Shown in pieces: positions 1,938 to 24,778 of a stretch of DNA of 43,020 nt (position 1 is its first letter; each line of letters opens with the position of its first letter). The stretch lies in sequence record PQ863254.1; one strand, given 5' to 3'. Source of the stretch: Escherichia phage Ptacy1537. The notes under the pieces are model-generated. The model was not told the origin of the DNA. It saw nothing but the letters and a program-made list of their open reading frames with translations, and did not search any database. A program made the position numbers and the translations under genes.

Positions 1938-2540
1938 ATGCGAGTATCTGACGTCCCATTCTGCCCGTCCATCCTGGCTGCTGCCCAGCTGCGTGTAGAG
2001 GTTTGCAAACTGTTCAACCACGCTGCCCTGATGAAGGACCGTGGCGGCACCTATGCCACTGACGTACTGGTCCCGTTCTGGACTGCTATTAAGGCCCTGG
2101 CGCAGCTGCCCAATGGCCGCCCGTACGACGGACCGTATCTGGGTGCGGGTATCCGGGACCTGCGGCCGCAGATTTACAAGTGTCTCACCTCCGTACGCAA
2201 GTTCCCACTGACCGCTAAGCCGGAGTTCGAGGCGCTATGTGATTGGGCTATTGCCACCGCTACCGCCTTGGCACCGACTGTAGATGTCACAGGCGTTACA
2301 GTAGCACCGGCCACTACCAGCATCGTAGCAGGTAACACCCGCAAGATTGTACCTACCGTGGCACCTGCTGACGCCACCAACAAGGGCGTTACGTGGACTA
2401 CCAGCGACCCGGCTGTGGCCACTGTTGCCTCTGACGGCACTGTCACTGCTGTTGCTGCTGGCACCTGCACTGTGACCTGTATCACTGTAGACGGCGGCTT
2501 CACTGCCACCACTGCGGTTACTGTAACTGAACCTGCTTAA
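1938..2540 (+). CDS. Hypothetical protein with C-terminal bacterial Ig-like (Big_2-like) domain
   Basis: 200-aa ORF with AAGGA 9 nt upstream of ATG. C-terminal about 80 aa is T/V/A-rich with VTWTTSDPAVATVASDGTVTAVAAGTCTVT, typical of Big_2 Ig-like folds. N-terminal half unrecognised. Confidence 0.55.
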   Translation: MRVSDVPFCPSILAAAQLRVEVCKLFNHAALMKDRGGTYATDVLVPFWTAIKALAQLPNGRPYDGPYLGAGIRDLRPQIYKCLTSVRKFPLTAKPEFEALCDWAIATATALAPTVDVTGVTVAPATTSIVAGNTRKIVPTVAPADATNKGVTWTTSDPAVATVASDGTVTAVAAGTCTVTCITVDGGFTATTAVTVTEPA

Positions 2541-2570
2541 TAGGGAGGCCCGGCGTACCGGGCATAGCTT

Positions 2571-3149
2571 ATGGGTATCAAAACTCGCGTAGGCTACTGC
2601 TCTGTAGCCGTCGTCCTGGCCCTGGTCAGTACCAACCACCCAGGGGAGATTCGAACCTCTAAGGAGGGCCTGGAGCTCCTCTCTGGTTATGAGGACTGCC
2701 GCACACAGGCATACCTGGACATCGTAGGAATCCCTACGTGCGGTATTGGCAGCACCTCCGGTGTCCGTATGGGCACTACCTGGACAGAGGCACAGGTGGC
2801 AGCTGCGTTCGTTAAGGACGTACAGGCGGCAGAGAAGTGCGTCCTCGTGTACTTTAACGGATACGCCATGCCGCAACCGGTGTTCGACTCTGTGACCTCT
2901 CTGGTGTTCAACACCGGATGCTGGGGTGCACGCTGGAACAACAAGCTGAACCGCCCGACTGGCATTGCTCAGTACGCTAAGGCGGAGGACTGGCAGAATG
3001 TGTGTTACAGATTGGGTGACTTCATCTACGCTGGCGGGAAGGTCTCTAATGGCCTAAAGAACCGTCGAGCTAAGGAGCAGGCTCACTGTATAAAGTGGCA
3101 AGTACCACAATCCTATGAGGGTTCCAGATGGACTCCAAATCCCCGTTGA
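2571..3149 (+). CDS. SAR endolysin (T4/P1 lysozyme-like muramidase, GH24)
   Basis: N-terminus is a weakly hydrophobic G/A/S-rich stretch (VGYCSVAVVLALVST) followed by EGLELLSGYEDCRTQAYLDIVGIPTCGIG, matching the catalytic E-D-T region of P1 Lyz / P21 R type signal-arrest-release endolysins. Confidence 0.75.
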   Translation: MGIKTRVGYCSVAVVLALVSTNHPGEIRTSKEGLELLSGYEDCRTQAYLDIVGIPTCGIGSTSGVRMGTTWTEAQVAAAFVKDVQAAEKCVLVYFNGYAMPQPVFDSVTSLVFNTGCWGARWNNKLNRPTGIAQYAKAEDWQNVCYRLGDFIYAGGKVSNGLKNRRAKEQAHCIKWQVPQSYEGSRWTPNPR

Positions 3150-3511
3150 TTAAACTGGCCGTAGTCGGCGCTGTATTGGTCGCTATGGTTATCCCGTCAT
3201 TAGTCGGGTATCACTACTACGGTAAGGTGGCAGTGCTCAAGCAGAGCGTTAAAGACCTCACCGACGACCTCGTCCATACCCAGGATACACTGGAGGCCAC
3301 CCTTGAGGGTGAGCAGCGTGCTAACCTGGCTTTATCCGAGCTTCGCAAGAAGAAGGGCTTAACCGATGCTGAACTTCAAAGTGCAAAATCCGAGCTGGAG
3401 CGTATTCACCTTCGCAACCCAGGCAACAATTGTCCTGTATTGCCTGCTGTCGCTGACAGGCTGCGGGCAGCAAACGACCAAGTACGTAAGAGTGGCTCCC
3501 TACGTCCCTGA
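3128..3511 (+). CDS. Rz-like inner-membrane spanin (i-spanin)
   Basis: 127 aa. N-terminal transmembrane segment (LIKLAVVGAVLVAMVIPSLVGY) followed by a charged coiled-coil region. Overlaps the endolysin stop. Confidence 0.6.
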   Translation: MDSKSPLIKLAVVGAVLVAMVIPSLVGYHYYGKVAVLKQSVKDLTDDLVHTQDTLEATLEGEQRANLALSELRKKKGLTDAELQSAKSELERIHLRNPGNNCPVLPAVADRLRAANDQVRKSGSLRP

Positions 3512-3662
3512 GAGCCTCTATGACCCGTGCACTCCACCAGCCTTACCTGAGGGTGTACTTGACCAGTTAATCATTGAGCAGCACGTCCTGGACCTCTATG
3601 GGACCATCTCAGGCTGCAATGATGACAAGGCTGAAATCAAGAAGCTACTCAGCGGTAAATAG
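3366..3662 (+). CDS. Rz1-like outer-membrane lipoprotein spanin (o-spanin), overlapping Rz in the +1 frame
   Basis: ORF starts inside the Rz gene in another frame and runs past its stop. Hydrophobic signal ends in lipobox LSLTGC; the mature part is Pro-rich (PYVPESLYDPCTPPALPEG). Confidence 0.5.
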   Translation: MLNFKVQNPSWSVFTFATQATIVLYCLLSLTGCGQQTTKYVRVAPYVPESLYDPCTPPALPEGVLDQLIIEQHVLDLYGTISGCNDDKAEIKKLLSGK

Positions 3663-5312: not shown

Positions 5313-5341
5313 TTGACATTAACGAGGATGCACCATACTAT
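5313..5341 (+). promoter_or_regulatory. Candidate host sigma70-type early promoter
   Basis: TTGACA (5313-5318), 17-nt spacer, TACTAT (5336-5341). Sits upstream of the early gene block on the coding strand. Confidence 0.45.
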
Positions 5342-5868
5342 GACCATACAGACAGCGGAGACCGACACGGCAAACAACGTTAGGTGAGTCTCCAATGTTT
5401 GGGCCTTGCACTCGCAAGCGCTTTTGTGAAAGAGACTTTGATGTACACATTGTGGAAGTACCCAGCACAGAGGAAACTCCGGTGATGGGAAGTGGAAGGT
5501 GCTTAAGTGCGATTGCCACGAGGAACCGCGATGGGGAAGCGTAGTATAGGGACGATAACCCTTTAAAGATATCAGGCCGGGTGAGATGGTAGGTCAGTTA
5601 TAAAATCCATCGATAATAGTGTTTGGCGAGCATTCCCTCCACCGAACGGGAGAAATCGCATCCAGCGTCACTGAGCGGGACAAGTCTCAAACGTATTGGA
5701 TTAACATCTGCTCCTGAGTAGGACGGGTAACGCGGTTAGCGCATGGTGACACTGTGAAGTGGTTCGATGCAATGCTTGACGCCTACCGACGCGAAAGGGA
5801 GCGGGTTAACATATGAGTATTCAATGGTGAGTATTCATACCTTTAACCAAACGATGAGGATTTACAAA

Positions 5869-6429
5869 ATGGCTACTACCAAAACCGCTAAAGCTACCAA
5901 AACCACTTCTGATTTCGTCAAGCTGGCTATGATTCCGGCTGATTTGGATAAGGCGATTGACCGTGTGTGTGTCGCTTCCAAGACGCTGCAATCTGACATC
6001 CACGATGTGGCCGTGGCTATCATGGTTCACACCTACAACCACAACGATTTCAGCAAGGCACAGACCCTTGTCGATGGCCTGGGTGAGGGTGTGCGCCGTG
6101 GTGCTCTGGTTGAGTGGTTCCAGGCCGCAGGTCTGAAGGTAAACGCTGAGGCTGGCGCTTTCTCTGGCTTCAACAAGGCCAAGATGGAAGATAAGTGGGA
6201 TAAGGTTAAATCCACGCCGTGGTATACCATGAAGCCGGAGCGCCCGTTTGCTGGCTTTGACCTGATGGCTGAGCTTGAGCGCCTGCTGTCTAAGGCTGAG
6301 AAGGCGACTAAGAAGAACGCCGACACGCCGGAGGACCAACGTGCTGAGGGTTACACTTTTGTGTGCGATGCCGACAAGCTGGCCGCCCTGCGTGCGATGA
6401 TTCACCCGGCAACGCAGACTGTTAACTAA
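5869..6429 (+). CDS. Early hypothetical protein
   Basis: ATG at 5869 with GAGGA 8 nt upstream (chosen over the 5767 start in the ORF track). 186 aa, no recognised domain. Confidence 0.6.
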   Translation: MATTKTAKATKTTSDFVKLAMIPADLDKAIDRVCVASKTLQSDIHDVAVAIMVHTYNHNDFSKAQTLVDGLGEGVRRGALVEWFQAAGLKVNAEAGAFSGFNKAKMEDKWDKVKSTPWYTMKPERPFAGFDLMAELERLLSKAEKATKKNADTPEDQRAEGYTFVCDADKLAALRAMIHPATQTVN

Positions 6430-6490: not shown

Positions 6491-6883
6491 ATGAGCAAAA
6501 CAAAGATTCTTACCTTCCTGCGGGAGTGGTTACAGTATTCCGACGCCTGCATGAAGGCACACAAGGCGGGCGAGGAGAAGCCGCACTCGCAGACGTTCAC
6601 GCCGTATGATGGGTTGTGTGGCAACCTCGACCGCTGGGCGCGTGCTTACGCCCGCCGGGAGCAGCTTAACTTTGATGCGGAGCGCCAATTTAACCGGGGC
6701 TTATGTACGGCGCTGAAAGACCTGTTCCGGGCCGATGGCCTGTGTACCTGTTGGACGTTCGGAGAGCGTAGCTTTAAGATGCGCTTTGACCGGGAGTCTA
6801 ACGCACGGTGCCCTAACCGCCGCCGCTGGGTGAAGAATACTATCGCACAGCTTGAGAAGGAGCTATCCGATGGCAATCACTAA
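6491..6883 (+). CDS. Early hypothetical protein, paralog family member A
   Basis: 130 aa. Shares FL(R/T)xWL...F(T/R)PY(D/T)GLC with the 7166..7489 product. Confidence 0.6.
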   Translation: MSKTKILTFLREWLQYSDACMKAHKAGEEKPHSQTFTPYDGLCGNLDRWARAYARREQLNFDAERQFNRGLCTALKDLFRADGLCTCWTFGERSFKMRFDRESNARCPNRRRWVKNTIAQLEKELSDGNH

Positions 6884-7169
6884 GATATCCTTTCTGGCCC
6901 GCTACCACACGCGGGAAATCAGGGAAGTAATACTATCCCCGTGCTGGCCTACTCTTGAGAAAGAGGTCACGGTACAGCACGATAAAGAGGCCGTGTTCGT
7001 ACTCGGGCCGGGGCCATGTGGCAAGACGGTTGACAAGCTGGATGTACGGTATCAGGAGCACGATATTGTTATCACTCAGTACCACGATGATGGTACACTT
7101 AAAGAATTTGCATACCAGCGCGAAGATGTGCTGGGTCGTATAACTATTGAGCGGAGTGTATTTCAATGA
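6870..7169 (+). CDS. Early hypothetical protein
   Basis: ATG at 6870 preceded by GAGAAGGAG. 99 aa. No recognised domain. Confidence 0.5.
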   Translation: MAITKISFLARYHTREIREVILSPCWPTLEKEVTVQHDKEAVFVLGPGPCGKTVDKLDVRYQEHDIVITQYHDDGTLKEFAYQREDVLGRITIERSVFQ

Positions 7170-7489
7170 CCAAAGAGATGAGAGAGTTTCTCACAGCGTG
7201 GCTTGATTGGGCCACGAGCGGCGACGTTAAAGACCATAAATACGGCTGTATATTCCGCCCGTATACCGGGCTGTGTGCTGCTGCGGATTACTGGACAGTA
7301 GACGATGGCCCGGCGCACTACGAACTCATTAGCGAGTTGGGTGATATGCTGGAAGCCGGTGGGTTGGCCACGGACTATCCTTTTGACACCCCGCGTAGCT
7401 ATGACGCTGCCGCAGAGGCAGGCACACAGCACCTTAACCCGGCCCGCCTGGCGTGGGTACGTGCTAAGCTGGAGGTGTCAGATGAGTGA
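7166..7489 (+). CDS. Early hypothetical protein, paralog family member B
   Basis: 107 aa. EFLTAWLDWA...FRPYTGLCAA parallels TFLREWLQYS...FTPYDGLCGN of 6491..6883. ATGA-type overlap with flanking genes. Confidence 0.6.
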   Translation: MTKEMREFLTAWLDWATSGDVKDHKYGCIFRPYTGLCAAADYWTVDDGPAHYELISELGDMLEAGGLATDYPFDTPRSYDAAAEAGTQHLNPARLAWVRAKLEVSDE

Positions 7490-7898
7490 TATCTTTGTTG
7501 GTTTAAAAGTGCGGGCCCGGAAAGATAGCTTGGGCACTGCGATTGAGAACGAGGGGCGCACTGCGGTGGTGTGTACTGTGGATGCAAATAAGGTATTCTA
7601 CAAATACAAGCACCGCCCGACAGTGTACCAGATTACCACTAACCGCTTTTGGGACCGCTTTGAAAGTGTCGAAGATGATAAACCTACTGGCGTCTCCGCG
7701 ACTGCTGGTCATTGTGCTGGTAATGGTGGTCTGCGCGGGCACAGTGTTGGAGATGTATTCCCTGTGGTCGTTTATCAGCGCGGGACTCCTGGCTTTATAA
7801 CGCACTGGCTACGCCTGCCGGATGGCCGGGACATCGGCCCGTACCATAGCTACGATGATGTACACCGTGCCGCAGCATGGCACAAAGATAACCTGTGA
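7482..7898 (+). CDS. Early hypothetical protein
   Basis: ATG at 7482 overlapping the upstream stop; 138 aa (MSDIFVGLKV...). The longer 7305 start in the ORF track would overlap the upstream gene. Confidence 0.5.
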   Translation: MSDIFVGLKVRARKDSLGTAIENEGRTAVVCTVDANKVFYKYKHRPTVYQITTNRFWDRFESVEDDKPTGVSATAGHCAGNGGLRGHSVGDVFPVVVYQRGTPGFITHWLRLPDGRDIGPYHSYDDVHRAAAWHKDNL

Positions 7899-7908
7899 GG
7901 ATATTACT

Positions 7909-8139
7909 ATGACTGTTAAGATTAAAGAACGTACCCCGGCTAAGACACTGGTTCATTTCCGCAACATAAAGCCGGGCCAGTTCTTCGTGTATTCGTCAGA
8001 ACACAGCGAGCGCAATCTGCAATTACGTACCGACACCGGTGCTGTTATCGTAGAGACCGGGGTACATGACGAGGAGGACATCTACTCTAAAGATGCGGTG
8101 TTTGAAGTTATCCGCGATGTAGATATCTTCTGGGGCTAG
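7909..8139 (+). CDS. Early hypothetical protein
   Basis: ATG at 7909 with GAGGA upstream. 76 aa. Confidence 0.5.
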   Translation: MTVKIKERTPAKTLVHFRNIKPGQFFVYSSEHSERNLQLRTDTGAVIVETGVHDEEDIYSKDAVFEVIRDVDIFWG

Positions 8140-8199
8140 TGGTTTGCCGAAGGGCCTGCACTCGCGGGCCTTTTATCAATATCACTGTGGAGTTATGAG

Positions 8200-8412: not shown

Positions 8413-8708
8413 ACCAGAACGCTGTAACTGTGGCGATGATGCTGTGGGGATACGTGGAGGCTGAGGTGCACTTCGTAGACAGCCACACCCCAGATGACCC
8501 TACAACATATGAGCTGGCCGGTATGGGTGCTGTCGAGGCCTGTGAAGCGGTGCGGCTGCTGGCCATCGAGCTGTATGACCGCTGGGATAAGCCCGACACT
8601 ATGGAGTGGGTGGACTTCCTGTACGTAACCCTGCCGGATGTGGCGCACATCATTGTGCAAGACTGCATCTTAGGCACGTTCCCAACTCTCGAGGCATTTG
8701 ACATATGA
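8409..8708 (+). CDS. Early hypothetical protein
   Basis: 99-aa acidic ORF, overlap-coupled to its neighbours. Confidence 0.5.
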   Translation: MNQNAVTVAMMLWGYVEAEVHFVDSHTPDDPTTYELAGMGAVEACEAVRLLAIELYDRWDKPDTMEWVDFLYVTLPDVAHIIVQDCILGTFPTLEAFDI

Positions 8709-9106
8709 AACTGAATAAAATGATGGTGCTGGTGTCGGCCGAGTGTTCCGACCTGTGCGACTCCGAGAACGCAGACCGCACCGCAGAGCTGCGACACTGG
8801 ATTGGCACCTCTTACCGCCACCGCTTCAGCTCAGCCCTCGGCAAGTACAACGGCAACACTGAGAACTCCTTCTTGATTCAGGTCGATGACTTCCGGGACA
8901 TCGGCTATATCTCAGACAAGGCCGCTGAGATGAATCAGGAATCCATTCTGATACTGGATGCCCGCGACAAGGCATTCCTGTATTACCCGGCGTCAAAATC
9001 ACTTGAGCCTATTGGGTTGATGCTGAGCTGCCCTATGTCGGCATTCAATGCTGCGCACCACACCGCGTACACAATCATCGGCGATACCGCCTATTATACT
9101 ATCTGA
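8705..9106 (+). CDS. Early hypothetical protein
   Basis: 133-aa ORF, overlap-coupled start. Confidence 0.5.
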   Translation: MKLNKMMVLVSAECSDLCDSENADRTAELRHWIGTSYRHRFSSALGKYNGNTENSFLIQVDDFRDIGYISDKAAEMNQESILILDARDKAFLYYPASKSLEPIGLMLSCPMSAFNAAHHTAYTIIGDTAYYTI

Positions 9107-14157: not shown

Positions 14158-14742
14158 ATGAATCCTGTCGTACTGAATACGTTGAAACGCACCCATCTGA
14201 ACCTGGTGACGCTTCTTGGCGTACCCGCGAGCCGTTTGTTTCTGGTGGGTGGCTGTGTCCGTGATTGCGCCGCCGGTGCACAGCCGAAGGACTATGACTG
14301 CGTGGTACTTAACGACGTTGTAGAGGCCTGGGATGACTGCACGTCCTTCGCAATGGCGGAGCGTATAGCCCGCCTGGCACGTGAACTAGGCGCTACGGTG
14401 GCTATCTACCAGGCATATGGTAACGCAGCAGGTGCGGATGCGCACGACCTAACCGGACGTACCCGCGACTTCGACGACAACATCTGGTGCGGTATCCACG
14501 TACAGTTCGGAGAGGATACGCCATACGATATCCTCCTGTCCCGACACCAGGATATCGACGATGTGCTGTACAGCTTCGACTGCAACTGGAATCAGCAGTA
14601 CATCGGAGATAAGATTCACCTTTACTGGCTCGGTAAGAACGAGCTGGTATTCACGGGTAAGCCTCTCCGGGAAGGTCGCGAGGAGTATATCCGCAACAAA
14701 TACAACGAGGTATTCAATGTCCTTAATAGCACTGGTTCATGA
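14158..14742 (+). CDS. Minimal Pol-beta-superfamily nucleotidyltransferase, CCA-adding-enzyme head-domain-like
   Basis: 194 aa. FLVGGCVRDCAAGAQPKDYDCVV closely parallels the class II tRNA nucleotidyltransferase signature (YLVGGAVRD...KDRDWVV). A downstream RTRDFDDNI resembles the RRDxTxN motif. Confidence 0.55.
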   Translation: MNPVVLNTLKRTHLNLVTLLGVPASRLFLVGGCVRDCAAGAQPKDYDCVVLNDVVEAWDDCTSFAMAERIARLARELGATVAIYQAYGNAAGADAHDLTGRTRDFDDNIWCGIHVQFGEDTPYDILLSRHQDIDDVLYSFDCNWNQQYIGDKIHLYWLGKNELVFTGKPLREGREEYIRNKYNEVFNVLNSTGS

Positions 14743-17242
14743 CGTAGAGACAGAAACGAACCCGTGGTACGGACACCTGGCCTCCCCGTATAACCCGCTT
14801 AACTATGTGGTAATGGATGCCTTCGAGCAAGTTACCTTTGGTGGCGGTAAGGTGAGAGTCAGCCCCCGAACCGAACAACGCTTCGCTTCTGTCGAAGACT
14901 TTAAGGCCCGCTGGCCCCAGCCGTTCCCTGACAATGTGAACATCTACGTAGCGCACAACGCCGCGTACGAGATGCAGTGGCAGCTGGAACATAACTTTGA
15001 TAACTTCGTAGCGTTCCTGAAACGGGGCGGAAGGGTGTACTGTACGGCGTATGCGCACTACTTGCTAAGCAACCAGCAGGACACGTACCCGCCGCTTAAC
15101 GAAGTCGCCCCACTGTACGGCGGTACGCAGAAGGTGGATGGCGTTAAGGCACTGTGGGACGCCGGGGTGCTTACCTCTGCGATTGACCCAGAGCTGCTGA
15201 GCGAATATCTGTCCGGCCCGAATGGTGATATCGACAACACCACCCGCGTATTCCTGGGCACCTGGAACCAGCTGGTCGAACGAAACATGCTGACGATGGC
15301 GCTGGTGCGTATGGATAGCCTGCTGTATCTGGCATTCTGTATGCACTTCGGGTTGAAGGTTGACGAGGATAAGGCCCACCGCCTACAGGCGGAGAACGAG
15401 GCCGCACTCGCAGACCTTAACAAGCAGCTTTATGAATACCTGCCTTCGGATATGCCGGAAGAAGCCCGCGAGCAATTCAAGGGCACACGCTTCCAGCTTT
15501 CAGCATTCCTGTTCGGCGGCGCAATGAAGTACGAGAGTCAGGTGCCCCGCACCGATTCGACTACTGGCGAGCTGATTTACAAGAAGGCCGAAGGTCCGGT
15601 GTTCAAGTGGCTCAAGGAAACATACGTCAAAGACCCGGCGCTCTGTGAGTTCGACGAAGAGGCTGGCGGTCTGTGGTATGACCCTGAGCGCAAGGTGCAC
15701 CAGGTTCGGTACACGGCAGGTAAGAACAAGGGACAACCCAAGTTCGACAAGTACGTGACCGACGAGGTTGACACCAAGAAAGGCGAGCTGATTTACCAGT
15801 TCCGGGGTATGATTCAGGGCGCTGTGCGGGATAAGCTGCGAGATGCTATCGAGACCGAATGGGCGGGCAGTCAGAAGCTGGCCGACGGCACACCGGTAGT
15901 CTCCACCGCAGGCGACGTGCTGGAAGTCCTGGCTGCCCACGATGTCCCGGTGGCCAAGCTGCTGGACCTAATCGGCAAGATTGAGAAGGACCTGGGTGCG
16001 TTCTACCTGGTGCAGACGTTCAACAAGGATGGCTCCCTGAAGAAGCAATCAGGGATGCTTCAGTACGTGCAAGAGGATGGCTTCATCCACCACACGCTGA
16101 ACACCACATCCACGGTTACGGCCCGCCTGTCTTCTAACAAGCCGAACATGCAGCAGATACCCCGAGCTGAAGAGGCCAAGCCTGGTGACTTTAAGTCAAA
16201 GGTTAAGAGCATCTTCATATCCCGGTTTGGTGCTGACGGCGGCATACTCCAGGAGGACTACAGCGCACTGGAGACGGTTGGCCAGCAGGTAATGACTGGC
16301 GACCAGAACCTCAAAGAGGCGCTGATTAAAGGCCTGGACATGCACTCAATGCGTCTGGCTGCAATGGAGGAGTTGACGTATGAGTACGTCGTCGCCCGAA
16401 CGAAAGATGGTGCTCATCCTGAGCACGCCGAGTGGGATGTCAAGCGAACTGGTATTAAGCCTGTTGCGTTCCAGTATCAGTACGGAGCCACGTCTTACGG
16501 TATGGCCATGTCCACCGGTAAATCGCAGGACTTCTGTCAGGCGTTTATCGACGCCGAGAAGAAGGCGTTCCCAGGGGTAGAGAGCTGGTACGATAACGTG
16601 GTTTACCCGGCGGTTGAGCAGTCCTCGTTGAAGCGTAAGCCAACACGGGTACAGACAGAGGATGGCCAGTACCGACTGTACCGCACAGGGGTATTCATCG
16701 CTCCGTCTGGCACTACGTATCAATTCCAGCAGTACACCAAGCTGCGCTGGGACCCGGAGAGCCGCACTCGCAAAGAGTTCTCTGAGTTCAAAGTCCCGCA
16801 AATGCGTAACTACCCAATCCAGGGTGAGTCCGGCTTCTTCGTACAGCTGGGCTGCGGTATGCTGATTCGACACTTCATTGCCCGCGACTTCTACGGAATG
16901 AAGGCGCTGCCGATTAACACAGTGCACGATGCTAACTACTTCGACGTTCACAGAGACGTAGTGCAGCAGGTAGCCTGTGAGGTGGAAGTAATCATGGAGT
17001 CAATCCCTGAGATGCTGAACCACCTGTGGCCAGCGTACAATGTCGAAGTGCCATTCCCGGTAGCGGGTGGTTACGGCGACAGTATGGCCGAGGAGAACCC
17101 TGTGTTCTCCAGCAAGAGTAAGAAGGAAGAGCCGGAAGGCTTTAAGGCTGACAAGGCCGCCTGGGTGGTACGGAAGAATCAGTTTAAGACTGACTATCTG
17201 GCCGCTAAGAATATCCAAGTTAAATTCCCATGCACTCAATAA
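14717..17242 (+). CDS. DNA polymerase, family A (T7 gp5-like) with 3'-5' exonuclease domain
   Basis: Start taken at ATG 14717 (MSLIALVHDVETE, exo I-like DxE). Pol A motif A DYSALE. 841 aa. The ORF-track start at 14561 overlaps the upstream gene. Confidence 0.85.
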   Translation: MSLIALVHDVETETNPWYGHLASPYNPLNYVVMDAFEQVTFGGGKVRVSPRTEQRFASVEDFKARWPQPFPDNVNIYVAHNAAYEMQWQLEHNFDNFVAFLKRGGRVYCTAYAHYLLSNQQDTYPPLNEVAPLYGGTQKVDGVKALWDAGVLTSAIDPELLSEYLSGPNGDIDNTTRVFLGTWNQLVERNMLTMALVRMDSLLYLAFCMHFGLKVDEDKAHRLQAENEAALADLNKQLYEYLPSDMPEEAREQFKGTRFQLSAFLFGGAMKYESQVPRTDSTTGELIYKKAEGPVFKWLKETYVKDPALCEFDEEAGGLWYDPERKVHQVRYTAGKNKGQPKFDKYVTDEVDTKKGELIYQFRGMIQGAVRDKLRDAIETEWAGSQKLADGTPVVSTAGDVLEVLAAHDVPVAKLLDLIGKIEKDLGAFYLVQTFNKDGSLKKQSGMLQYVQEDGFIHHTLNTTSTVTARLSSNKPNMQQIPRAEEAKPGDFKSKVKSIFISRFGADGGILQEDYSALETVGQQVMTGDQNLKEALIKGLDMHSMRLAAMEELTYEYVVARTKDGAHPEHAEWDVKRTGIKPVAFQYQYGATSYGMAMSTGKSQDFCQAFIDAEKKAFPGVESWYDNVVYPAVEQSSLKRKPTRVQTEDGQYRLYRTGVFIAPSGTTYQFQQYTKLRWDPESRTRKEFSEFKVPQMRNYPIQGESGFFVQLGCGMLIRHFIARDFYGMKALPINTVHDANYFDVHRDVVQQVACEVEVIMESIPEMLNHLWPAYNVEVPFPVAGGYGDSMAEENPVFSSKSKKEEPEGFKADKAAWVVRKNQFKTDYLAAKNIQVKFPCTQ

Positions 17243-22282: not shown

Positions 22283-24778
22283 GTGGCTACACTCGCAGAC
22301 CAATTGGCGTTTGAAATCAAGCACCGCGACCTCGGCCGTGAACGTATGGCGGCTATTATCCAGTCAGCTGGGGAGCAGGGTAGATTGACAGACACGCCGT
22401 TGGGTACGGGTGTGCTCCGTCGATACCTGCAACGCCTCTCTGAAACCATCTCACTGGACATCACTGAGGAGCTGGGCGTACCGGGCCGCTCTAAGCAGTA
22501 CGCTGTATTGCTGAAGAACATGGACCCGGACGTACTGGCCCTGGTGTCTCTGGATACCGTCATCGAACATCTTGAGATGAGCGATGAGGAGGAGGATTCA
22601 GTACCCCTGGGTAGTATGGCATCTGCGATTGGCCGGGCTATTCACAGTGAGATTATCTTGACGGAGTTCAAGGACATATCGCCGGACTTATACGAGGTAC
22701 TGACTAACAGCCTCAAGTCGCGAATGAGCAAGAACCTCCGGCACAAGATGGCAGTGTACAAGATGCAGGCCGCTGAGCAAGGTCTGGTTCTGCCAGAGTG
22801 GACGACGGCACAGCGTGCACAGGTCGGCTCATACCTCATCGGTCTGCTGATTAACATGGGTGTGCTGGAACAGTTCACACGTTGGATTAAGCGCAAGTCC
22901 GTATACTGTGTCTCGCTGGGTACGGATGTGGTCGAATTGATGGAGGCCATCAGGGAGCGCGTAATTGAGCGCTCAGGCTTCGCAGCACCCTGCCTAATAC
23001 CACCGGAACCCTGGACCGGAGAAGAGGGCGTAGGGGGCTTCCACGGAGCTCTGAAGCTACGTGCCCCTCGCTTCTTCAAAGGAACATCCGAGCAGCTGGA
23101 GATAATGCAGACGGAAGGGTGTGACCTGACCACCACCCTGGCCGCGTTGAATTTCCAGCAGAGGGTAGCATGGAAAGTCAACCCATTCGTGCATAAGCTG
23201 GCCCTGTTAATGCTCCAGTACCGCTACGAGTTGAAGAAGTCAATCACTTCGGTGGCGTACTACCCGAAGCCTGACAGGCCCGAGTGGCTCGACCTCTGCG
23301 ACGATATGTCCAAGATATCGCCGAGGCAGAAGGAAGAGTTCGACAAGTGGAAGCTGGCCACCCGAGACTGGCACACAGAGAACAAGAAACGTGCCCGCAT
23401 TGAGGTGCGTATGCGCTTGGCCCTGGCAGCTGCGCGGGACTTCGGTGAGCTTGAGCGCTTCTACTTCGTATGCCAGGCAGATGACCGGGGCCGGGAATAC
23501 TTCTGCTCCGGGCCGCTTAACCCGCAGGGAAGTGACCTACAGAAAGCCCTGCTGCACTCCGCAGTAGGTGGGCCTGTAGACACTCCAGAGGCTGTGTTCT
23601 GGTTTAAGCTAAACATCGCCACGAAGTATGGCATTGACAAACTGGCTCCGGCCGACTGTATAAAATGGGTGGATGATAACCATGACAACATTATCTCGGC
23701 GGCGGCTGACCCTCTTAATCGCGAAGCATTTGACTGGTGGGCACAGGCCGATAAGCCGCTACAGTTTATCGCGGTGTGCGACGAGTATCGCCGTTGGGTT
23801 GAAGACCCTGTGGGTTTTGAGGCTCGAATCGCAGTCTCTATGGACGGGACGTGTAACGGCCTTCAGAACTATTCCGCGCTACTTAGGGACCCCATTGGTG
23901 GACGCGCTACGAATCTCATTAGCGCCGAATCTGGAATACCTAATGACATATACGGTGACGTGGCCCTCGCCGCTTTTAAGAGGCTCGAAGCTGACGTGGG
24001 CGGAATTTACAGACCCGGCTGGCTACTACACGGATTCAACCGAAAGCTGACGAAGCCGTCGGTCATGACCCAGGTGTACGGCTCGACGTTCGGTACGTGT
24101 CGCAAGTCCATTGTGTCGTACTGTGTAGAGCGGGCGCTGTTTGAGGATGAGCAGTATGAGCACGCTGATTACGCTGCACGTCTGGTCTGGGAAGGGATTG
24201 GAGATGTTGTTGTTGCAGCACGGGAATGTATGGAGTGGCTACGCAAGTGTGCCGGACTCATTATGGCTGAGGGTGCTGAGTTCATATCCTGGCCTGCTCC
24301 TTCGGGATTCAGGGTAGTCCAGGTGTACCGCAAGCCAAAGCTGGTGCAGGTAAGGGCGCACATCGGCAAGAGTGTGTCATATGCAATCCAGGTGGCGGTG
24401 GATGACACCGACGACCAGGACAAGATTCGACACCGAAATGCCTTCCCACCCAATTTCATCCACAGCGTCGACGCAAGCCACTTAGCAATGGTGGCTGTGG
24501 GTATGGGTTCCCTACATGAACAGATGCGCTTAGAGGGCCGCCTATCGAAGATTTGGGCTAATGAAAGTGTGTTCCTGCACTTCATCCATGACGACTTCGG
24601 TGCATTGCCACATATGGCGGCTGACTTGGCACGCATAATTCGTGAGAAGTTTGTTGAAATGCACGAGAATTATGACATTGAGTCTATCAGAAAGGACTAC
24701 TGGTTCCTCCCAGAATCTCCGAAGAAAGGCTCATTAGATATTCGTTGTGTACTCGACAGTATTAACTTCTTCCGTTGA
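22283..24778 (+). CDS. Single-subunit DNA-dependent RNA polymerase (T7 RNAP-like)
   Basis: 831 aa. GTG start with AAGGAG 6 nt upstream. C-terminal region has the T7 RNAP-type motif IHDDFG and the palm-domain FIHSVDASH. Confidence 0.9.
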   Translation: MATLADQLAFEIKHRDLGRERMAAIIQSAGEQGRLTDTPLGTGVLRRYLQRLSETISLDITEELGVPGRSKQYAVLLKNMDPDVLALVSLDTVIEHLEMSDEEEDSVPLGSMASAIGRAIHSEIILTEFKDISPDLYEVLTNSLKSRMSKNLRHKMAVYKMQAAEQGLVLPEWTTAQRAQVGSYLIGLLINMGVLEQFTRWIKRKSVYCVSLGTDVVELMEAIRERVIERSGFAAPCLIPPEPWTGEEGVGGFHGALKLRAPRFFKGTSEQLEIMQTEGCDLTTTLAALNFQQRVAWKVNPFVHKLALLMLQYRYELKKSITSVAYYPKPDRPEWLDLCDDMSKISPRQKEEFDKWKLATRDWHTENKKRARIEVRMRLALAAARDFGELERFYFVCQADDRGREYFCSGPLNPQGSDLQKALLHSAVGGPVDTPEAVFWFKLNIATKYGIDKLAPADCIKWVDDNHDNIISAAADPLNREAFDWWAQADKPLQFIAVCDEYRRWVEDPVGFEARIAVSMDGTCNGLQNYSALLRDPIGGRATNLISAESGIPNDIYGDVALAAFKRLEADVGGIYRPGWLLHGFNRKLTKPSVMTQVYGSTFGTCRKSIVSYCVERALFEDEQYEHADYAARLVWEGIGDVVVAARECMEWLRKCAGLIMAEGAEFISWPAPSGFRVVQVYRKPKLVQVRAHIGKSVSYAIQVAVDDTDDQDKIRHRNAFPPNFIHSVDASHLAMVAVGMGSLHEQMRLEGRLSKIWANESVFLHFIHDDFGALPHMAADLARIIREKFVEMHENYDIESIRKDYWFLPESPKKGSLDIRCVLDSINFFR

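Follow-up and report, generated by a model that had tools for sequence, protein, structure and literature searches.

Two small genes in the early region of Escherichia phage Ptacy1537 (PQ863254.1; the whole 43,020-nt stretch was analysed and is referred to here as the window) encode products that resemble one another, gpA (6491..6883, + strand, 130 aa) and gpB (7166..7489, + strand, 107 aa), and are separated by a third gene, gpC (6870..7169, + strand, 99 aa). This locus raises the questions of whether gpA and gpB are related, how long ago they separated, and what they might do during infection.

A complete podophage genome of ~43 kb, circularly permuted, makes up the window. Its first part (1–3.5 kb) holds the genes for terminase, endolysin and spanin, and small early genes lie at about 4.9 to 10.8 kb. 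Beyond them are the primase, helicase and ligase genes, the DNA polymerase gene (14561..17242) and the gene for a single-subunit RNA polymerase (22283..24778), and then the structural genes. No Rfam family and no tRNA gene was found when the window was scanned. The nearest records were Klebsiella phages 6937, GP-4, KYP, K59PH2 and Y10, with patchy DNA identity of 83–88%, and four of these five are classified in the Autographiviridae subfamily Melnykvirinae. The encoded single-subunit RNA polymerase and the Melnykvirinae relatives both agree with the original prediction that gpA and gpB are early genes, and place the phage in the Autographiviridae. The description of the phage as T7-like held in the broad sense only, as the layout is of the phiKMV type, with the RNA polymerase gene late in the replication block. 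Given this late position, gpA and gpB would be read by the host RNA polymerase.

A candidate sigma-70-like promoter (5313..5341, + strand; TTGACA-17-TACTAT, 10/12 in a consensus scan) was located upstream of the early operon. This candidate is weak, in that the number of sigma-70-like sites in the region was no higher than in shuffled sequences; the record of phage GP-4 has a host promoter annotated in the equivalent region. Between the promoter-like site and the first operon gene lie ~470 nt (5400–5868) with no convincing ORF and no Rfam match. A hairpin at 5401–5418, which shares GGGCCTTGCACTCGC with the operon terminator, was considered and rejected, being no more stable than shuffles. The first operon gene (5869..6429, + strand, 186 aa) matched phrog_1448, function unknown (E 6.9e-49), and was conserved in four of the five relatives (it was not detected in the stretch of Y10 examined) with a dN/dS of ~0.2.

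The genes that follow are tightly packed. The gene for gpA has a Shine-Dalgarno sequence (GAGGAG) 8 nt upstream, the start of gpC overlaps the stop of gpA by 14 nt, the stop of gpC and the start of gpB share ATGA, and gpB again has a Shine-Dalgarno sequence ahead of it. The next gene (7482..7898, + strand, 138 aa; phrog_18383, function unknown, E 5.5e-23) has a start that overlaps the gpB stop by 8 nt, and the last small gene (7909..8139, + strand, 76 aa), taken from the ORF list, has orthologues in four of the five relatives and is absent in GP-4. The operon is closed by an intrinsic terminator (8149..8178, + strand) consisting of an 11-bp G+C-rich stem, a 4-nt loop and then UUUUAU, with a computed RNA fold of −23.3 kcal/mol (z −4.5; 0/200 shuffles as stable), and a rho-independent terminator is annotated at the equivalent place in the GP-4 record. 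By this sequence arrangement, g5869-gpA-gpC-gpB-g7482-g7909 constitutes a translationally coupled operon of the early region, which ends at the terminator and precedes the replication genes.

The motif on which the pair was originally matched was found in both products (FLREWL...KAHKAG...FTPYDGLC in gpA and FLTAWL...KDHKYG...FRPYTGLC in gpB). BLASTP aligned the two proteins with an E of 9e-9 and 29% identity over 116 columns, and their Smith-Waterman score was 80 compared to 26.3 ± 4.7 for 3000 shuffles (z = 11.3), none of which reached the real score (Gumbel P ~2e-7). Comparison by hhalign of a gpA-clade profile (18 orthologues) with a gpB-clade profile (27 orthologues) gave an E of 2.4e-13 and a probability of 98% over 99 aligned columns. 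Thus, by pairwise and by profile alignment, gpA and gpB were homologous over their full length, with shuffled controls scoring far below the real pair. The claim that the intervening gene is unrelated was also borne out, as the Smith-Waterman z of gpC was 2.7 against gpA and 0.03 against gpB. The product gpC belongs to Pfam PF25755 (Phage_T3_1_05, the T3 gp1.05 family; E 3e-25, 88.4 bits, gathering cut-off 27), a family without known function. Relatives of gpA and gpB co-occurred with gpC in the close Klebsiella phage clade only, and the idea that gpC is their general partner was dropped on account of this confinement.

Both proteins matched the HMM of phrog_2510, gpA with an E of 6.6e-14 (residues 3–124) and gpB with an E of 6.2e-21 (residues 1–103), and a family HMM built in the present analysis gave 4.3e-24 and 1.5e-29, respectively; scanned against the 43-kb window, it returned exactly two copies, gpA and gpB. 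They are almost certainly homologous members of PHROG 2510, a family of phage proteins that is catalogued without a function and has the related PHROGs 2176, 6418 and 27059, and all 53 of 53 diverse family members tested matched phrog_2510. The PHROG 2510 profile spans 219 positions, consistent with two-domain fused members, and gpA and gpB each match one full repeat of it. The canonical acidic member of the pair is gpB. Relative to a typical member, gpA is a basic, Cys-rich derived form that has extra cysteines, has lost the His at family position 89 and carries WTF in place of YPF, none of which makes it different in kind. Scans of Pfam, NCBIfam and PADLOC gave no match at E ≤ 1 for gpA or gpB and no family match for the 53 diverse members, with no Pfam family hit by more than one of these. 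All names attached to family members, including the clusters of 10 diverse members, were 'hypothetical', and in the literature on PHROG 2510, the phage subfamily and Phapecoctavirus anti-defence we found no function tied to any member. The proteins gpA and gpB are new members of a catalogued but unstudied family.

The family proved to be large and widely scattered among phages. Among 1.84 billion cluster representatives searched exhaustively with HMMER, 1701 matched at E ≤ 1e-3, of which 531 reached E ≤ 1e-10 (about 1,700 family clusters, defined at 50% identity). By tblastn, relatives were present in 96 phage records, at up to six places per genome. The carriers belong to Autographiviridae, Drexlerviridae, Straboviridae, Stephanstirmvirinae and other groups, and include phAPEC8-like myoviruses, T1-like siphoviruses and a T4-like Yersinia phage as well as Ralstonia, Pectobacterium, Erwinia, Alcaligenes and Pseudomonas phages. 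A search of 72,556 plasmids gave one weak family match only, and two pattern scans of 185,579 genomes (one per species) gave a single match, in a prophage of Sphingopyxis. In the collections searched, PHROG 2510 is therefore almost confined to phages and prophages of Proteobacteria. The copy in Sphingopyxis sp. JAI128 (5842–6285 of the locus stretch) is flanked by a repressor-like gene and by genes for an Erf-like annealing protein and SSB; downstream of it come genes for an HNH endonuclease and an integrase. Because this copy sits in a prophage, the family also occurs in temperate phages.

An AF2 model of gpB (pLDDT 85, pTM 0.79) contained five helices and superposed on BFVD models of phage homologues with a TM of 0.73–0.81; on these models, the family is predicted to be a five-helix domain of ~100 residues. 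Sequence searches of the PDB with two profiles gave a best match at chance level (E 0.25), and fold comparison against the PDB revealed no relative of the family among solved structures.

Conservation was counted in 121 single-domain representatives and then in 222 domains, and residue positions are given in gpB numbering unless gpA is stated. Cys37 and Arg94 (Cys43 and Arg112 of gpA) were invariant in 222/222 domains, in a sample made up of the best 150 profile matches and close relatives, a choice that favours profile-like sequences and flatters conservation. G35, L36, P72, F73 and W97 were each kept in at least 94% of domains (n = 222). The conserved positions comprise the set FLxxWLxW in helix 1 (F8, L9, W12, L13 and W15) together with F30, the start of helix 2 (G35-L36-C37), L58, F62, G66 and L67, the loop Y71-P72-F73-G74 with Y79, and the start of helix 5, H89-x-[N/D/C]91-P92-x-R94-x-x-W97-V98. 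All of the signature residues are present in gpB (F8, L9, W12, L13, W15, F30, G35, L36, C37, Y71, P72, F73, Y79, H89, R94, W97 and V98) and most in gpA, which departs at Y15, W71, T72, F79 and A89. Across the 222 domains, position 89 was His in 78% and Tyr in 11%, with the non-His 22% including Tyr, Cys, Trp, Ala and Asn; position 68 was mostly Asp (47%) and position 91 was Asn in 53%. From helix periodicity, the side chain of Arg94 probably points inward, since W97, V98 and L102 line that side of the helix too, and the invariant Cys37 and Arg94 could be purely structural. The BcepSaruman protein has Tyr instead of His89 in each of its three domains, and on this ground the idea of a catalytic Cys-His pair was set aside.

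Selection on the two genes was examined by the Nei-Gojobori method, comparing the window with five relatives in four to five codon alignments; synonymous divergence approached saturation in several of the comparisons. Mean dN/dS was 0.32 for gpA and 0.27 for gpB, compared to 0.2–0.33 for most neighbouring early genes. Both genes are under purifying selection of a strength ordinary for the early region, and the diversifying selection that had been proposed was undetectable at the level of the gene. Within the gpA clade and within the gpB clade the end helices were almost invariant, and a hypervariable segment with indels lay between helices 2 and 3 (gpA aa 46–75, 6626–6715; gpB aa 38–57, 7277–7336). 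In this segment the proportion of synonymous differences (pS) was 0.5–0.96 compared to 0.3–0.6 in the core, non-synonymous differences were raised too, and dN/dS was 0.3–0.9 or incomputable where synonymous sites were saturated. This pattern suggests saturation or cassette-like replacement by recombination.

The relatives also bear on whether each gene is needed. The gene for gpA was present in all five related phages, and gpB of K59PH2 is internally shortened to 92 aa. Klebsiella phage KYP (3753–4178 of the locus stretch) has lost gpB apart from six initial codons (MTKEMR), which are fused in frame to the downstream gene, and KYP is thus a natural knock-out of one paralogue with gpA kept. Because KYP lost gpB yet keeps gpA, gpB is dispensable and is not needed by gpA.

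Copy number in the family ranged from one to six, with a single copy in most loci fetched and two in the clade of the window. Yersinia phage JC221 carries four adjacent copies (2311–3655 of the locus stretch) downstream of a DNA ligase gene; the third of these (ORF 2872–3309) is annotated as a 141-nt CDS only and is probably under-annotated. In phiWec188, five copies are dispersed over 7 kb. Natural fusions of two or three family domains accounted for 21 of 200 proteins examined, and the larger fusion proteins (P0052, P0060, P0172 and others) contained no recognisable extra domain. A fusion that resembles our pair was gp03 of Pectobacterium phage PP2 (YP_009787303, 214 aa), which contains the same domain twice and is encoded in the early region (~2108–2750) of another Autographiviridae phage. 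Its domain 1 is basic (+5, Trp at position 89) and its domain 2 is acidic (−5, His89), the same charge order as gpA followed by gpB; unlike gpA and gpB, the two domains form a single polypeptide without an intervening gene, and neither domain is a specific orthologue of gpA or gpB. An AF2 model of PP2 gp03 (pLDDT 87.7, pTM 0.68) hints that two family domains may be able to act side by side.

These data allowed us to weigh how the pair arose. The reading that gpA and gpB are non-functional ORFs, resembling one another by chance or decaying, draws on nothing other than the absence of annotation and the loss of gpB in a relative. It is refuted by alignment statistics far above shuffles, by the hundreds of conserved clusters in the family and by the purifying selection on both genes, and it also runs against the Shine-Dalgarno sequence and coupled start of each gene and the confident structure prediction; its probability is negligible. 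The original prediction pictured instead a recent tandem duplication, split by an unrelated insertion, with fast divergence under diversifying selection. Such an event would fit genes that lie 283 nt apart in one operon, the hypervariable segment with indels in both clades, and the non-synonymous divergence of gpA, which in the variable segment was 2.5- to 10-fold above the core. The wider family contradicts it. Identity of gpB to homologues in unrelated phages was 37–45%, compared to 29% to gpA, and 139 of 173 other family domains scored higher to gpB than any gpA-clade protein did. Similarly, 36 of 169 other family domains scored higher to gpA than the best cross-paralogue score (42 bits), led by the best outside relative of gpA, P0068 (85 bits, 40% identity), which shares the gpA-specific motifs LxYSDxC and RRRWVKxTIxKLEKEL. 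Neither copy is thus the closest relative of the other, and the recent local duplication did not survive this comparison; because outside homologues score above the partner, an old duplication or two separate acquisitions are indicated. The selective part of that account also meets whole-gene dN/dS values (0.27–0.32) like those of neighbouring genes, and synonymous differences in the variable segment that are themselves raised or saturated, such that an omega above 1 is not demonstrable and replacement of the segment is an equally likely explanation. We consider recent duplication very unlikely; by sequence comparison, gpA and gpB appear to be anciently separated members of the family. Their chemistry has also diverged. 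The net charge of gpB is −10 (pI 4.5; gpB clade mean −8.7) and that of gpA is +7 (pI 9.3; gpA clade +7.0 ± 1.9), and the remaining family has a mean charge of −3.8, with 74% of domains negative and only 7% at or above +3. In the gpA clade, moreover, six residues are inserted after helix 1, the variable segment is longer, the C-terminus is extended and there are additional cysteines, and His89 is replaced by Cys, Tyr or Ala (Ala89 in gpA of the window, with WTF for YPF).

Two further readings concern how anciently separated copies might work. In one, gpA and gpB would form an obligate heterodimer, a split form of the fused two-domain proteins that is active only when paired. The 21 natural fusions, the basic-then-acidic order and AF2 model of PP2 gp03, the translational coupling of the two genes, and the opposite net charges (+7 and −10), which would favour association, are all in keeping with such a complex. 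Against it, KYP retains gpA without gpB, most phages have a single copy, the PP2 domains show no specific likeness to gpA (domain 1) or to gpB (domain 2), and a pTM of 0.68 is no proof of a fixed domain interface; we regard an obligate pairing as unlikely. The other reading develops the earlier suggestion of metal binding: a small zinc or other metal module with Cys37, His89 and residues 91 and 68 as ligands, in which the metal would only steady the fold or a partner interface. What recommends it is the invariant Cys37, the usual His at position 89, the occurrence of Asn, Cys or Asp at position 91 and of Asp, Cys, Ser, Asn or His at position 68, and the presence of Cys at all four sites (C37, C68, C89 and C91) in the majority of gpA-clade proteins. 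Only a single candidate ligand is invariant, however, and position 91 is in 53% of domains Asn, a poor ligand; position 89 is Tyr, Trp, Ala, Asn or another residue in 22% (Ala in gpA of the window), CxxC or HxxH spacing is absent, and the all-Cys set occurs in one lineage only and therefore reflects one evolutionary event and not covariation. On balance, we think a metal module unlikely.

What remains is the explanation we favour overall, in which gpA and gpB are accessory host-directed factors with a conserved polar site and diversified copies; taken as a whole, we hold this at a little short of an even chance. The empty scans of defence-related and curated families, the 'hypothetical' names and a literature that offers no function for any member all count against it. 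Its parts differ in strength. A host-directed accessory role is the somewhat more probable side of the question, and the host-takeover or anti-defence role put forward originally is plausible from genomic context. That gpA and gpB act by way of a Cys/Arg site that binds a ligand or is catalytic is rather doubtful, the alternative being that these residues are conserved for structural reasons alone. According to gene order and the annotation of a relative, host RNA polymerase would transcribe the operon straight after infection, and gpA and gpB would be made early as non-essential accessory factors that act on the host, in takeover or in counter-defence. The conserved polar site (Cys37, Arg94) might bind or react with a target common to all Proteobacteria, either a small molecule or a conserved macromolecule; since phages of alpha-, beta- and gamma-Proteobacteria all retain this site, these hosts probably have its target in common. 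Different specificities may have been conferred on gpA and gpB by the charge reversal and the variable segment, and the two would therefore be sub- or neo-functionalised rather than redundant.

Known early proteins offer a partial comparison. The class I early genes of T7 and T3, such as those for Ocr (gp0.3) and S-AdoMet lyase, are small and non-essential and lie at the genome start ahead of the replication genes. The genes for gpA and gpB occupy the same genomic niche, and a gene of the S-AdoMet lyase family (8705..9106, + strand; PF23780, E 9.8e-25) is present in the next transcription unit, 1.2 kb downstream; the S-AdoMet lyase of T3 is a known type of anti-restriction gene. In contrast to Ocr and S-AdoMet lyase, gpA and gpB have no sequence or fold similarity to any PDB entry. 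An Ocr-type DNA mimic was rejected, since gpB is acidic (−10), as a DNA mimic would be, but gpA is basic (+7), and there was no fold match in the PDB. A further likeness, by analogy only, is to Tad1, Tad2 and Acb2, phage sponges of defence signalling nucleotides, which are similarly small, phage-restricted and scattered among unrelated phages, and which likewise have a conserved site against a variable background. In its most specific version, the favoured explanation would make the family a phage-specific fold of a new kind, with a Cys-Arg site that is reactive or binds a ligand, which phages of many families direct, often as several diversified copies, at a bacterial target that is itself conserved, for example a core enzyme or an immune signal. 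If this Cys-Arg counter-defence reading applied, gpA and gpB would be two specificities of one tool, but we think it unlikely in this full form.

The finding is real but fairly ordinary for the window. Two 'hypothetical' early genes are explained as one family, and the notion of a recent duplication with positive selection acting on it may be given up. With ~1,700 clusters, the family is a fair target for functional work, being almost confined to phages and prophages in the collections searched, outside Pfam and the PDB, marked by an invariant Cys and Arg, and repeatedly multiplied or fused. If its members were indeed counter-defence or host-takeover factors, many phage genomes could be annotated at once.

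Two genes downstream of the terminator were also of note. The S-AdoMet lyase family gene at 8705–9106 is under strong constraint (dN/dS 0.09); its PHROG 2226 label is 'SAM-dependent methyltransferase', and its GP-4 orthologue is annotated as a SAM hydrolase. A DUF7267 gene (PF23929; 8200..8412, + strand, 70 aa) was 94–99% identical across the five relatives, and its dN/dS of 0.03 (range 0.01–0.04) sets it well apart as the gene under the tightest constraint in an early region that otherwise evolves fast.
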